A stretch of DNA of 64,000 nt from Sphaerodactylus townsendi (taxonomy: Eukaryota): assembly GCF_021028975.2 (NCBI RefSeq), contig NC_059429.1, positions 28,148,001 to 28,212,000 on the forward strand, in the 5' to 3' direction. Position numbers and translations under genes: made by a program. Positions 2,930 to 53,862 of this stretch are shown piece after piece. The notes beneath the pieces were generated by a model. The model was not told the origin of the DNA. It did no database searches and saw only the letters and a program-made list of their open reading frames with translations. Each line of letters begins with the position of its first letter. The stretch's first letter is position 1.

Positions 2930-5510
2930 GTTTTTTGCTCCTCAGCATTGTTTGGTTCAATTTGGTTTGTGCATTGATTGCAAGTTTTCTTTCCCCCTTT
3001 AAGAAACCTGGAGTTTGTTTTCACCCAATAAACCAGGTTCGTAAATACAGGAAGGAAACAAGCTCTCATCTGCTTTGGTAGCTGCATTTGGACTTCATGG
3101 GAAACAGGAGTACCAAAAGCCTTCAAGTGTACTCTGTGTACAAGGGGAGGGGTGACAGGAAGGAGTACTTGAATGTAAGAACTCGCTCCACTTGGGCCTG
3201 TCTTGGATAGAAGTTTGTTGAGAAGTGAATGTCTTCATTCTGATTCTGAAATATTATCACCAGACTTTTGCAATGTAATTTACTTTTTTTTTTTTCAAGT
3301 ACCAATGTGTGTGGATGCAGTTTTTGGCATTTGCACATATGTTTGATCAACTTTTTTAAAAAATTCAGTCTCCAATGCACACTTTTCCTCCAAAGTTAAA
3401 ATTCATCAAGCTTCTCTCCTGCAGGAGATAAAGGGGGGGGGGGGATATAAATTCCAAAGTCGTCGTCTTTGAATATCTTTGAAATTCTATGCCATCTGCA
3501 GCTATCATTGTCCCATCTGATCAAATACTGAAAATGACACTTGGGTGGATCTCGGCAGCATTCTACACCACTGACTGAAGAACTGTTTCTCAAGTCAGTT
3601 CATATACACCCCAGTGCTGGGATCTAGTTGAGACAAAGCGTGGCCTTCCTGCAAACATCACAAGACTCTATACTTACCACTTGGCAGGATGTTTGAATTG
3701 TGAAAACTGCAACCTGCATGTGGGAGCTATTCATTGCAGTGCCACTCTTTCAGTGACACTGGCAGACCTCTGATGGGCTACTGCAATTGTGCAATCATAA
3801 CAGTGGCATGAATAGCTCCCCAGACATAGCTATTGGTTCTTATAATGATGTACTCATATGAGAGTGGGGAACTTGTTATATGCATTACCAAGTGTACCAC
3901 CAATCATGACTAGTCCCTCCGTACGTGACCACGTTCTTCTGCTAAATGGAATAAGGTTTGTCCCATTCAGCAAAAAAGATCAGGCAGCACCTGATGGATT
4001 TCCCAAATCAAACTGGAAGCAAGCAGCATGTGTCACTCTAGGATTTCTATCTGTGTTTGGCAGTGAAACCTCCCTCCAGATCTCATGGCAGTCTCACACT
4101 GGTGATAACTATGTTGATCTAGAGGTAGGCATAGATACTGGTTTCTCCTCCTATATGCTCTGTTTTTTCTTCTTTGATTCTGATCTGTAATACATCAAAA
4201 GATTTTCTAGAGCATCAGAAACTTAACCTGTCACCTTTGGCAGCCCAGTAAAATGTTAATTGCTTGCAAGTTGTTTGAATGATGATGCAATCTCATGACT
4301 GCTTCACTCTATACAAACTCTACATTGGTTCCCCTGTTCTCCATTAACTGTTTTGGGTCATGTGGGTTAATCCTGGCTTTTAAGGACCAGCCATGACTGT
4401 CATTTGGGCTCAATCAGGAAGGGCTCACTGTTGTGTATGGAAAGTGATGCATTTGATTCAAGACAGTACAGAAGCTTAGGCTTTATTTGAAACCAACAGA
4501 AGTCTTCGATTAAGTTTCAAAGGCAATATTTATTTTGGGGGAGAAATGATAACAAGAGAAAGCCGGTTCTCTCATTTGTAAACTCCTGGAGTACAATGGG
4601 CATGACAGATAGCTCTGCAATGCTGGCCCACCCTTTCTCTCCTTCTCTCTCCACAGAATATCCTCCAAAACATTTCTTATATTTACAAGGGAGAAAGAGA
4701 TCATTCTGCTCAGTAATGTAGGAAAAATGGACAACTACTCAATAAAGAGTAATAGGTAGGGAGGTATAACTGCAGGCAAAAAAAAAATCTGTCTCCTTTT
4801 CAACCCCCTGTCAAATCATTTCCATAGCCTCGGTGAGAGCCTGTAAACCAGGAATGAGGAATGAGGGCATGACAAGTTCTCTTAGAGGTATGCCGCAGCC
4901 ATAAAGGTCATAATAGTCTAGTGTGGTTAGATCGCAAGGTATTTAAAGGTTGCTCCCTTCAAGTTGCAAGTCTAGAAAGGGCAAAATGGAGACAGCCAGA
5001 GGAGAACTTAATTCAACAGAGGATTGGAATGGATTAACAATGATGACTTGCATCAATAAAATCCTGCTAACCCGGATCACTCCTTATTTCACATGGTCAT
5101 CTTCTGCTGTCTCTATGTATGCCATTACTAGTGTTATAAGATGTTAATGGAAACATCTTATATATCTTGTTGCTGCTGTCAACAGGACTGCTGGGTATAG
5201 CAATGAAGCAAGTTGAAGGGTGGGTCTGATAGTGGGGGAGGCATTTGATCAGAGATGGAGATTCAAGCTCAACTGAACAAGATGGGAGGGGTGTGTGATT
5301 TTTTTATGCAGCTTCTAGCTTTCCTTCTGCAAAACACTGCAAATTGCCATTACCTAGGTATCCTTGGAGAAATGTCACTTGCTCCTTAGCGTCTATGCTA
5401 GACTTTGGCCTCCCTCTTCTCTGCTGTTCCATCTTTGCCCTATTTATAGTCATATGAATGTAATTATTTAACACTATATGTTAGTTGCTATTGAGTTTTT
5501 TTTAATGATG

Positions 5511-8418: not shown

Positions 8419-8584
8419 NNNNNNNNNNNNNNNNNNNNNNNNNNNNNNNNNNNNNNNNNNNNNNNNNNNNNNNNNNNNNNNNNNNNNNNNNNNNNNNNNN
8501 NNNNNNNNNNNNNNNNNNNNNNNNNNNNNNNNNNNNNNNNNNNNNNNNNNNNNNNNNNNNNNNNNNNNNNNNNNNNNNNNNNNN
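8419..8584. other. Assembly gap (166 N)
   Basis: Run of N. Confidence 1.
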
Positions 8585-11597: not shown

Positions 11598-11834
11598 CTG
11601 AGTCTTCAAACTCGCTGTTGTAAGCATTCCAGGTCTCACTTATGCGAAGCAAGTTCTCCTCCATAGCTTGAATATCCATATATGGACAGTTGCATTCTGG
11701 GAATTTGGGGCCACACTGACACCAACAATCGTTTTCCTTGCAGATGAATTCTCCCTCTGAATTGCAGGCAATATAGCTCAGGGCTGCCTGCACAAACCGC
11801 TCTTGCAAATATTCAGGCAGGATGAGCTGCAGAC
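11598..11834 (-). CDS. BRINP3: BRINP3 internal coding exon, 237 nt (probably exon 6); cysteine-rich segment
   Basis: Translates (G)LQLILPEYLQERFVQAALSYIACNSEGEFICKENDCWCQCGPKFPECNCPYMDIQAMEENLLRISETWNAYNSEFEDS. Acceptor ccgccttttcag|GT; donor TCAG|gtgtga; phase 1-1. Confidence 0.96.
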
Positions 11835-18791: not shown

Positions 18792-18927
18792 TAGTGGTGG
18801 GATTCAGCAGGTTTGCACCACTTCAGCAGAACCGATTGTTAAAATGGTGCTTATAAACAACCAGTTGTTAAATTCTTTGAATCCCACCACCAGAACTGGT
18901 TGTTAAATTCTTTGAATCCCACCACTG
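18792..18927. mobile_element. 136-bp hAT MITE of the CAGTGGTGGGATTCA family with a duplicated right end
   Basis: Perfect TSD CTCACAGG; GTTGTTAAATTCTTTGAATCCCACCAC occurs twice. Confidence 0.92.
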
Positions 18928-19435
18928 CTCACAGGGCTGCTGAGCAGGAACATTTCAATTTTCCTCAAGCTGTGCTGAAGGATTTACTCCTTGACCACCT
19001 GGGGATGTGTAGAATTGAGTTAATCTTTAATTAAGTTCTGTTATCTTTCCTTGAAATATCTCAGATGGTTTATCTGGCAAGAACCCATGATGTAATCTTG
19101 AGGTTTACCCCTGATACTGGGGACATATTAACCACAATGCTACAAGTTTCAAAAATGATATGCTTGAACATGGCAACCCCAACATTGGACAAGGAAGAAT
19201 AATGTGTCACTGATGAAGGGGACAAGCCACCATGAAACAGGTAGTTACTGGATAACCCATCTCTTTGATGATTTAAGGACTAAATTTATGTAACCAAGTT
19301 TTCACTATTTGTCCTGGAGGGTGTATCTAGATAGATGCTTTAATTCCTTTGCCGTTTGCTGTTTGTTTACTTGTATATGGGGTGTGCACTCTTCTTGGAC
19401 ATCGTTTGCAACTTCGGATTCTGTATGCACATTGA

Positions 19436-19961
19436 GGCCGCTTCCACACGGCCACACTGGGGGTTGGGTCGGCGTACATGACGCTGACCAACCCCCCCCC
19501 CCTGCCCTGCCCGACAGGTAACAACAGGTAACAACAGGGAAGATGGCACTGCGCTGCACCGTCGCCCGATCGACTTACCTTTCCTGTGATCTTCCGACGT
19601 GTCGCCGAGGCCAGGGGACACCCCCCCCTGCCCTGCCCGACCGCTCCGGAGTTGCAGGGCAGGGGGGCATGTCCCCAGGCCTCGGCGATGCGCTGGAAGG
19701 TCACAGGGAAGGTAAGTCGATCAGGAAAGGGGGGGATGGCGCCTTCCATCCGCTGCCGTTTGCACGGCAGCAGCTGGAAGCCGCCATTTTCCAAAAACCT
19801 TGCTCGGGGAGCAAGGTGGGAAAATGGAGGCTTCGCGCCGCTGGGGGGGGAGCAAGGGCGGCGCGGCTGCGAAGCATCTGCGCCCCCCATGCAAACAGCT
19901 CCTTAGGGATGGCGTTTTTGCCATCCCTAGGGCGCTGTAAACGGCCTGTGTGGAAAGGGCC
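19436..19961. mobile_element. 526-bp CpG-rich PIF/Harbinger-type MITE with an internal palindrome
   Basis: TIR GGCCGCTTCCACAC / GTGTGGAAAGGGCC; 3-bp TSD TGA on both sides; inverted repeat at about 19568-19722. Confidence 0.9.
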
Positions 19962-21240
19962 TGACATTGTCACTTATTAAATCAGCCTTTTAATTGTCTA
20001 CTTTATATATTGCTTCTCATAACTGTGGTGTAGTAGGTTTATGTAGTATATTTCCACTACACCTCACAGTTTTTTGTTGTTTGGTTGTTTACCTTACAAA
20101 TAGCACATTCTGACATGCATGCATGCAATGGCACTGGGTGTCAGGTTGTGCTGCCCATTTTGCAGCTGTGCAGTGACAATGCTGCAGTTGTGGCTCCAGC
20201 ATCTCTGTCATGACTTCCCGATACCCTCTAGTAAAGGCTCCACTTCCCTGTCCCCCTTCAGTACACTCAGTAGTGTAAGGGCCCTCCCAACGCCCAATCA
20301 AGTAAGCCATTGCTGACATTCCTACTGGCTGTGTTTTTTTACAAAGCATCTGTAAAAAAAGGTTGTAAAAATCATCTCAGGTGTCTCAGGCCAATGTGTG
20401 TTCAAAATATGGAAATATGATCTTAGTCCAATCACCGTGATTAGCCAAGTATTTTGGTTAAACGAAGCAGCACAACTGACTGAACACAAGAGTGTCCTTA
20501 ATTTTGAAATATATGACTGTACTGTCTACCTGCATAAAAATTCTACTTTCATATGTGCAGGCTATAGAAAATTAACATTCTGAAGGTGTGACAGATAGAT
20601 ATAGCAATAATGAAGGTGAACATTGATATTCATTTTCAATAGTATCTCATTTCTCAGATATGAAATTTATGCTGATTCAGGCCATCTGTCCATCTAGCTC
20701 AATGTGTCTACTCTGATTAGGAACAGCACTCTAGACTCTCATGCAAGAGGCTCTTCATTAAAGTCTTTCTTCACGAAGAGAATTTCTAGAGTTAATTCTG
20801 TAACTAGATCATGTGCAGTTCACACAACATTCATTTCTTTCCATTCACTTGTTTGTTATTAATTTTCATGTGTATGTTGATAAAAAAACCTGCCAAAAAG
20901 TAATCTTACTAGAATTGTAAATGAGATTTTATCAGAATTCCTATTGTATCACATCTTGCTGAAGTAGGCTTTCTGCATAACCCCCTGAAAATGTTTTGCA
21001 AACATTTTGCAAACATTTTGAAAAAACCATGTTTGCCCTAAGTCACCTCCTCAAAAATGCTTCCTGACCACTATGTTGTGGTCATTCAGTTTTTTAAAAC
21101 AGATTCAATGCTATGAGGCTTCAAAGCCCCATGCTGCCATTCTCTAGAGCCCTGGATTTCTTTTTTTTTTAAATTATCAAAATACAGCCAGAGACTGCTG
21201 GCAGAAGCTCAGAAAAGGGTGCTGACAGGGAACTCCTGGG

Positions 21241-21896
21241 CAGAGGCGTAGCTGAGCCAAACTGTGCCCAGTGCGCAGTCTATATTTTCCACCCCCCATG
21301 ACCCCCCGCCTTTCCCCCCGTGCCCCCTGCAGTGCCCCCCGCATTCTCCCTGCAGCGCCCCCCCTTCCCACACTTACCTTAGTTCCTTTCCTTTTCCTAG
21401 AACTTTTTCAGGCTGAAAAAAAGGCCTATTCACAGTTCAGGCTTTAAAACTGCCTGATGGGAACTATACTTCCCAGGATACTTTGTGAGCCCCAAGGACT
21501 CCTGGGAACTGAAGTTCCTCAGGCTGTTTTTAGCCTGTACTGTGAACAGGCCTTTTTTTCTGTCTGAAAAAGTTCTAGGGCCGTGGTGGCGAACCTTTGG
21601 CACTCCAGATGTTATGGACTACAATTCCCATCAGCCCCTGCCAGCATGCCCAATTGGCCATGCTGGCAGGGGTTGATGGGAATTGTCGTCCACAACATCT
21701 GGAGTGCCAAAGGTTCGCCACCACTGTTCTAGGGAAAGGAAAGGAACTAAAGTAAGTGTAGGAAGGAGGGGGGTGCCATGGGGGGTCGGGGCAGGGGCCT
21801 GAGAAAGGGGAGGGGTTAGGGAGAATTGTCCACCCCCAACATGACCCAAAACCATGTGCCCAGTGTGTGGCCCCGTCCCTGATGGCCCTGCCTCTG
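21241..21896. mobile_element. Non-autonomous hAT-type element with an internal palindrome, hosting a nested MITE
   Basis: Termini CAGAGGCGTAGC / GCCCTGCCTCTG; TSD CTCCTGGG / CTCCAGGG (7/8); arms 21371-21480 pair with 21500-21580 plus 21727-21758. Confidence 0.85.
21581..21726. mobile_element. 146-bp near-perfect palindromic hAT MITE
   Basis: CCGTGGTGGCGAACCTTTGG...CCAAAGGTTCGCCACCACTG; perfect TSD TTCTAGGG. Confidence 0.95.
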
Positions 21897-22939: not shown

Positions 22940-23045
22940 CTTGCAACTGAATCTTATTTTCCGGACTCTGTACCAGAACAGAACTGACAGAATCTAGGTT
23001 GTCATAGTTACTGCAGCCAAGAGGACCAGTCCGGGTTTCTGTTAC
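22940..23045 (-). CDS. BRINP3: BRINP3 internal coding exon, 106 nt (probably exon 5); not in the ORF track
   Basis: Translates [35 protein letters not shown]+G, the direct continuation of ...ASTAIK. Acceptor tcccttgctcactag|GTA; donor CAAG|gtatgt; phase 0 in, phase 1 out. Confidence 0.96.
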
Positions 23046-49651: not shown

Positions 49652-49802
49652 NNNNNNNNNNNNNNNNNNNNNNNNNNNNNNNNNNNNNNNNNNNNNNNNN
49701 NNNNNNNNNNNNNNNNNNNNNNNNNNNNNNNNNNNNNNNNNNNNNNNNNNNNNNNNNNNNNNNNNNNNNNNNNNNNNNNNNNNNNNNNNNNNNNNNNNNN
49801 NN
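49652..49802. other. Assembly gap (151 N)
   Basis: Run of N, about 180 bp from the donor of the 191-nt exon. Confidence 1.
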
Positions 49803-49981
49803 CATACTTTCCCTTATATTTCAGCATTTTAAAGAGCTAGAGACTTTTAAAAATAAACTGTCGGAATTCAGAGGCGGGTATGATGTCCACATGCTTGTCC
49901 CATATGTATGTCCGTGTGTGCATGTCTATAACAAGGAAGAACACAACATTTATGGTGTGATTCCAGAAAGTTTTCCCATAC

Positions 49982-50172
49982 CTTTATGGCAGTAGAGGCA
50001 ATTTGAATATGGTGTAGCCTGCGCAGTGTGCTGTCCCTATCAATGAAGTAAGAGGCTGCCAACTGGTGCAGAGTCTCCAGCGTCACCGTGGTACTGTTAA
50101 TGCTGGGATCGCTCATTTCTGATCTTTTACTCAGCTTCCGCTTGTCCACAAAAATTGTGAGCGATTCCTCTC
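49982..50172 (-). CDS. BRINP3: BRINP3 internal coding exon, 191 nt (probably exon 4 by analogy to mammals); MACPF-domain region
   Basis: Translates (G)EESLTIFVDKRKLSKRSEMSDPSINSTTVTLETLHQLAASYFIDRDSTLRRLHHIQIASTAIK, matching recalled BRINP3. Acceptor ttgtgcag|GA after a T-rich tract; donor AAG|gtatgg; phase 1 in, phase 0 out. Confidence 0.96.
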
Positions 50173-50579
50173 CTGCACAAGTGAGACATGAAAAAAAATC
50201 AGAAAAAAATTAGAGAAAAGAAAACACCCACCATCCTTCCACTTTCCCTTGATTTTCATGCATTTGCTCTGGTTTTCCTGCAAGCAGAGGAGAAGGTCAG
50301 AGTGCATGCTTTGCTTTGCATTCAGAAAGTTCCAAGTTCAGTCCCTGATATTGCCGAACAAACATCCAGGGCACCAGAGCTGGAAAAGATTACTAATTGA
50401 GAATTTTGCATGAGCAACTGCACACGTGCACACACACTCACACACCCCCACATGGGCAGCTGCCCTCCCCCACCATGATCAAACAAATTTTTTTGCACCA
50501 GGTCATCTCAAAGTCACCATTACATTATAGAACATGCCCCAACTCACAAATCTTGGTAAAAGCTGAATCCAGATGATTT

Positions 50580-53525: not shown

Positions 53526-53862
53526 ACAGCTTTCACAACCAACGTAAGAACATACGAATACGCCGCCCTGAAGCCGCTGCCGAGCGATCGGCAGGGTCTT
53601 CACGACGCCTCCCGGACACGGCACTTACCTCCCCTGGCCTGCGCCGAAGAGCAGGCGCGCAAGGCCAGGGTTAAGCGTGTCCCTAGGCCTCAAGCGACGC
53701 AAGCCGAAGTCTACAGGGACACGCCGGGTCGGCCGGGCGCTGGCGCTCCACGGTACCGGCGTCCCGCCTCTTCCCGGGATCGTCCGTGCGGATCGTCCTT
53801 AGTGTAGCCGGTCGGGCGCCGAATGCGCCGACCTAGCCGCTTCCGCCTCATATGAAACGGCC
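53526..53862. mobile_element. Very CpG-rich ~335-bp element, probably a Harbinger-type MITE related to 19436-19961
   Basis: Right end ATATGAAACGGCC (GGCCG-type TIR) with a degenerate left end. Shares GGCCAGGG / GTGTCCC and ACTTACCT motifs with the 19436 element. About 44 CpG by hand count. Confidence 0.6.

Follow-up and report, generated by a model that had tools for sequence, protein, structure and literature searches.

A transposon-derived, exon-like segment in a BRINP3 intron of Sphaerodactylus townsendi as a predicted structure-masked pseudoexon

One question raised by this BRINP3 intron is whether a segment with all the outward marks of a cassette exon, lying within the central palindrome of a MITE, is treated by the splicing machinery as an exon at all. 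The original prediction, made on the 64,000-nucleotide stretch of DNA analysed here (the window), took it to be an exon that RNA structure could switch. The element, its family, the origin of the splice signals in family sequence and CpG decay, and the frequency with which equally complete cassettes occur elsewhere are demonstrated by the comparisons below. On these and on modelled RNA folding, we consider the 114-nt segment likely to be a silent, structure-masked pseudoexon, its splicing behaviour being predicted.

Read directly from the letters, the segment runs from 19692 to 19579 on the minus strand, preceded by AG and followed by the donor GTAAGT; its coordinates and its stop-free reading are those originally given. 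The AG dinucleotide of the acceptor occupies 19694-19693, and the donor boundary, AAG/GTAAGT, falls between 19579 and 19578. Upstream of the AG, and as anticipated, there is a C-rich, AG-free pyrimidine run (0.82 pyrimidine at -20 to -4) and a branch-like CTTAC, the A of which lies at -21 (19713), such that consensus branch, tract, AG and donor are all present in the sense of BRINP3. The plus-strand arm has no corresponding AG, also as originally read. When joined by script to the flanking 106-nt and 237-nt exons, the segment keeps the frame without a stop and yields the very peptide that had been proposed; it has no in-frame ATG. Its length fits the size definition of a pseudoexon (50-200 nt, intronic, with good acceptor and donor) given in PMC1935003. 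Four G runs at 19621-19638 of the minus strand make up a G-quadruplex-like motif within the segment, completed by changes private to the window copy. The donor had been called a perfect U1 consensus; it does fit the donor consensus, but it departs from the U1 complement at -3.

A strict consensus rule picks out a single acceptor-donor pair on the minus strand of the 64-kb window, that of the 114-nt segment, and likewise a single pair on the plus strand, within the same MITE, while a looser rule gives ten pairs on the minus and eight on the plus strand, the segment being the only one both open and a multiple of three. Since neither of the genuine flanking BRINP3 exons passed the consensus rule, this rule measures likeness to consensus rather than use, and it was rejected as a predictor of splicing. 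The features of the locus are collected in the table.

Table. Features of the element, of the exon-like segment and of the flanking exons, in positions of the window
Feature	Position	Strand	Basis or remark
Probable non-autonomous Harbinger-like MITE, 526 bp, 14-bp imperfect terminal inverted repeats beginning GGCC	19436..19961		Relatives, ends
Left target-site duplication, TGA	19433..19435	+	
Right target-site duplication, TGA	19962..19964	+	
Palindromic centre with arms of 72 nt (86% complementarity), predicted to fold into a long RNA hairpin	19565..19725		
Private rearrangement: 10-nt duplication and 21-nt copy of central hairpin arm	19495..19535		Replaces the family's small hairpin
Exon-like segment, 72% GC, G-quadruplex-like motif inside	19579..19692	-	In frame, stop-free
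Branch-like CTTAC, C-rich pyrimidine run and AG	19693..19718	-	A of AG (19694) a CpG-to-CpA change from family CCGG
Donor GTAAGT, BRINP3 sense	19573..19578	-	Variable across the MITE family
Well-kept family donor GTAAGT, antisense to BRINP3	19712..19717	+	Letters shared with the branch-like motif
BRINP3 coding exon, upstream, 106 nt	22940..23045	-	Script join, protein comparison
BRINP3 coding exon, downstream, 237 nt, EGF-like domain	11598..11834	-	Protein and domain matches

The element that carries the segment is, judging from its ends and its relatives, probably a non-autonomous PIF/Harbinger MITE. Its terminal inverted repeats are kept across the family and have two mismatches in the window copy, and loose ends of contigs accumulate at both borders (19435/19436 and 19961/19962). 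A genome search returned 9,079 first-look candidates, 40 of which were scored; these comprise the window copy and 39 relatives of full or near-full length with 82-88% identity. Among the 30 best copies, which measure 513-545 bp, the 3-bp target duplication is exact in 17 and agrees in two of its three letters in 24, TNA being the commonest form (9/30). A 16-nt end motif is matched exactly at 4,484 places in the genome, sister families included. Inverted ends and 3-bp duplications are given as marks of Harbinger elements in PMC9179366, and PMC8437027 describes Harbingers of squamates that have given rise to short derivatives lacking coding sequence and have inserted into many introns. Tourist-like PIF/Harbinger MITEs, such as the sea krait Harbinger-Snek derivatives (PMC8437027; PMC9179366), resemble the present element in being short, non-coding, of high copy number, intronic and squamate, with inverted ends and a 3-bp duplication, whereas its terminal repeat of about 14 bp falls short of the usual 25-50 bp (PMC9179366), and it has in addition a central palindrome with outward donors and no matching autonomous partner at the loci checked.

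For a transposase within the MITE, two frames gave no protein match. The genome does contain 152 DDE_Tnp_4 matches of Harbinger type; at 30 short and 21 longer loci among them, no autonomous partner with the ends of this MITE was found, and two end-motif matches near transposase loci belong to adjoining sister MITEs, not to a parent. Two sets of Harbinger-type transposase loci, L071, L074, L075, L076 and L086 on the one hand and L072 and L073 on the other, keep open frames and agree at 98-99.9% over 3.5 kb; they represent recently active families, and their ends are unmatched to this MITE. Within the window copy itself, the 21-nt arm copy at 19495-19535 bears this copy's private change at 19637, and the rearrangement resembles an insertion made by templated repair. 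It gives rise to a strict plus-strand acceptor (19518) that pairs with the plus-strand donor at 19711 to delimit 194 nt antisense to BRINP3. Nearby, at 18793-18926, lies a small element with inverted ends of 14 bp, inside which 32 nt are duplicated. A microRNA precursor was considered and rejected, since none of the 14 Rfam matches reaches its gathering score (the best has 66 of 200 bits), a pattern typical of long hairpins.

How, then, did the separate signals arise? The branch-like ACTTACC is nearly invariant in the other 29 copies compared, which are best-scoring relatives and not a random sample, where it ranks 13 of 130 CpG-free 7-mers, and it is simply the family's donor read on the opposite strand. 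The gene-sense donor is the mirror image of that donor and is poorly kept, ranking 120 of 130 CpG-free 7-mers; GTAAGT in this sense is found in 15 of the 29, and one subgroup is without the GT. The AG, on the other hand, does not belong to the family sequence: CCGG stands at that place in most copies, and AG at the homologous position in 4/29. The CpG at the site reads CG in 16, CA in 5 and TG in 5 of the 29, much as do the other CpGs of the element, and divergence over the 29 copies is 21% at CpG sites versus 3.6% elsewhere. On this comparison, the donor and the branch-like motif are both inherited family sequence and the AG is a product of routine CpG-to-CpA decay. The claim that ACTTAC serves at once as donor complement and branch-like motif, with the palindrome making both, is therefore borne out by the letters, but the broader claim that the palindrome generates both splice signals holds for donor and branch motif and not for the AG. 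In the window copy 24% of the CpG letters are gone, the mean being 21%, and it thus shows no sign of CpG protection; nor does it show any sign of constraint.

Nor does the cassette single out this copy. Across the genome there are 45 exact copies of the 25-nt arm with AG and 180 with GG, and AG is found in either arm among copies, so that the asymmetry between the arms, from which the cassette had been thought special to the orientation of BRINP3, amounts to a coin toss. Because segment length tracks two variable C/G runs (102-117 nt among copies), the open frame is likewise a matter of chance. When the first 30 of the 45 AG arms were taken and the window's own copy left out, a sample chosen for the AG arm by construction, 9/29 have GTAAGT and 5/29 give equally complete cassettes of 114 nt, ended by GTAAGT and open in the same frame; copies picked instead by overall likeness give one complete 114-nt open cassette in 29. 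With decay to AG in either arm of many copies and other copies equally complete, a special relation to BRINP3 is unsupported.

The in-frame property had been made to depend on the length of a C8 run. A 45-nt contig of DNA run X1 covers 19608-19652 without differences, though with fewer than 31 letters per side it is supportive only; a contig of run X2 spans 19460-19579, the private rearrangement included, also without differences. A candidate frame-breaking allele, a 61-nt one-gap contig of run X3, was set aside, as paralog L065 has the same single gap. In a second organism (organism B, run X4) contigs enter the MITE from both flanks, and the insertion is therefore common to it at the same site; a 47-nt contig without differences covers the AG there, but paralogs could supply this contig. 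The contigs of the four DNA runs cover the intron evenly and are uninformative on splicing.

What distinguishes the segment from an ordinary exon is its predicted RNA structure. Its modelled fold has an energy of -156 kcal/mol (z -13 relative to 200 shuffled sequences), and the branch region pairs with the donor over 17 bp. To open the donor would cost 18.4 kcal/mol, to open the branch motif 21.7 and to open the tract with the AG 24.3, compared with 4.0-7.9 kcal/mol for the four real flanking splice sites and a background at random places in the intron (n=36) of median 3.6 and maximum 11.7 kcal/mol, all of these energies being equilibrium predictions without proteins, helicases or editing. In silico, then, the sites lack the accessibility looked for in a cassette exon (18-24 against 4-8 kcal/mol), and the proposal that the hairpin could mask both donor and branch motif is upheld by the predicted fold. 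Pairing of the 9-nt donor with a perfect partner would yield only 9.9 kcal/mol. The upstream arm, moreover, carries the letters of the 5' end of U1, and so would be a built-in competitor.

The timing of folding bears on whether such masking could leak. In modelled growing transcripts the donor already costs 19.0 kcal/mol to open when first complete, whereas the acceptor is open (4-5.5 kcal/mol) for the first ~95 nt of the exon, and branch and acceptor together until ~95-115 nt. An acceptor bound before the stem closes, or a stem loosened by A-to-I editing or helicases, could in principle lead to low-level, noisy exonization, with inclusion of a few percent, a 38-residue insert escaping nonsense-mediated decay and no selected role. 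The early opening of acceptor and branch site and the stop-free frame argue for this reading, as do cryptic Alu exons, numerous and held down by repression according to PMC5115870. It is nevertheless unlikely, the donor being predicted paired from its completion; the C-rich tract has no U run longer than two, and the four G runs of the exon would presumably also tell against it.

The silent pseudoexon reading has documented counterparts. Stems that hide otherwise good pseudoexon donors are on record, and pseudoexons may outnumber exons tenfold (both from PMC1935003). The structure-masked pseudoexons of ATM and CFTR, as set out there, are also intronic, of 50-200 nt, with good splice signals and the donor in a stem; in BRINP3, by contrast, the acceptor region doubles as the masking arm and derives from a transposon palindrome, and non-use is a prediction. 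A sequence of events can be proposed. A Harbinger-like MITE inserted into the BRINP3 intron and brought along a GC-rich palindrome, both arms of which hold a donor motif; routine decay of a CpG to CpA, presumably by methyl-CpG deamination, added the AG; in nascent RNA the stem would form, U1 would be unable to compete with the upstream arm pairing the donor over 17 bp, and, the hairpin keeping the donor paired, the exon would be skipped. Counting against a pseudoexon are the good consensus signals, in the window's sole strict minus-strand pair, and the acceptor predicted open for the first ~95 nt, which makes early binding possible.

Donors of this kind are not confined to one palindrome. The motif ACTTACCT followed 105-135 nt later by AGGTAAGT, the outward order, has 1,238 genome occurrences versus 65 for the control, while the inward order has 38 versus 49, and the outward matches listed include several different inner palindromes. 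Among 30 loci chosen by the end motif alone (the second end was called in 25, some wrongly or truncated), 11 hold the donor motif, with 16 motifs versus 2.3 in shuffles, and there are five outward pairs and no inward one. GTAAGT and GTGAGT alternate at the same place among subfamilies. Such counts stem from repeated amplification of a few related lineages rather than from independent events, and hence show inheritance and not selection; on the simplest reading the outward donors would go back to a first-exon donor retained from a parent element and mirrored as the palindrome arose. Outward donors are carried, for example, by the sister MITEs at L109 (6885-7447), L134, L136, L139, L142 and L151, which share these ends but differ in their inner palindromes. 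In the window, ACTTACC also stands at 21372, in a repeat-like stretch (about 21240-21580) that resembles a palindromic family at G000:C1:51522952, and at 53623, in a CpG-rich stretch (53540-53850).

Donors pointing outward from a GC-rich centre could also suggest that the CpG-rich middle of the MITE is a two-way promoter, in which case the segment would be an alternative first exon, spliced from 19579 to 11834 in a 5'-truncated BRINP3 RNA; a transcript begun inside the palindrome would, in addition, be without the masking arm. We regard this as highly improbable, given that the CpG loss is like that of other copies, as expected of methylated DNA, that no in-frame ATG is present and that conservation of the gene-sense donor among family members is poor. 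Slightly less improbable, though still very doubtful, is a more general proposition, that the MITE clade constitutes a self-masking exon and promoter kit, of which some copies, that in BRINP3 included, are spliced in under the control of RNA structure or editing, subfamilies keeping their outward donors (GTAAGT/GTGAGT), the mirror arm providing branch site and mask, and one CpG decay completing the exon.

The 237-nt exon shares 97% identity with a squamate BRINP3, and the junction at issue follows residue 241, between a MACPF match (54-165) and the EGF-like domain (259-293). Another coding exon (residues ~140-209) lies upstream at 49973-50182 on the minus strand, and the window has N stretches at 8419-8584 and 49652-49802. 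Of 120 proteins compared, 23 are without a match to the upstream exon; 95 of the 97 scorable have the plain junction, the other two carrying unrelated in-frame inserts (P0080, 61 aa; P0115, 33 aa). Cluster members, drawn from the 15 listed of 131 and of 979, were scorable in 27 of 33 cases, with the plain junction in 26; in the Pogona BRINP3 isoform P0124 (cluster member of P0001) a 15-residue, F/L/P/S-rich insert at the same junction looks like use of an upstream alternative acceptor. The in-frame inserts of P0080, P0115 and P0124 count against the pseudoexon reading in so far as they are predicted isoforms with an insert at its junction, but none is like the MITE peptide. No insert like that peptide occurs in the 97 and 27 scorable BRINP proteins, and no protein holding it was found for two frames (14 and 515 candidates), both of which are weak negatives for a lineage-specific element.

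These observations bring us back to the regulated, functional cassette exon, switched by RNA structure, that was first proposed. Its complete gene-sense signals and preserved frame, and an insertion common to organism B, speak for it; yet family sequence and neutral decay account for every feature, the copy is without sign of constraint, and the place of the insert belongs to a stretch in which this genome agrees at 95% with other reptiles and with birds. With the AG attributable to CpG decay and the gene-sense donor at rank 120 of 130, such regulation is not supported, and we hold it to be exceedingly unlikely.

Among repeat-derived exons, the cryptic Alu exons (PMC5115870) and the mulberry MITE exonization (PMC6593561) share with the BRINP3 segment near-complete signals supplied by a repeat, completion by point changes and repression in most cases. 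They differ in that the BRINP3 case concerns a reptile DNA transposon with hypothetical inclusion and, relative to the Alu exons, in that repression would be by self-pairing and not by hnRNPC on a U tract. Introner elements and self-removing insertions of the Ds/dSpm type are likewise DNA transposons with splice signals, but have these at their ends, and the element itself is spliced out; the sites of the BRINP3 MITE, in contrast, are internal and would splice a piece in. In titles and the beginnings of abstracts of openly accessible papers, we found no description of splice-donor palindromes in vertebrate MITEs, nor of a BRINP3 isoform with this insert; repeat libraries in the supplements of papers may already name the family.

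Exon-like segments derived from repeats are common in vertebrate introns and are mostly unused, so for the BRINP3 locus the segment is of little import. It does, however, illustrate cleanly that a palindrome containing a donor motif gains a branch-like motif at no cost and at the same time conceals both. If the family-wide retention of outward donors were functional, it would offer a route by which non-coding DNA transposons could seed first exons and cassette exons in reptiles.
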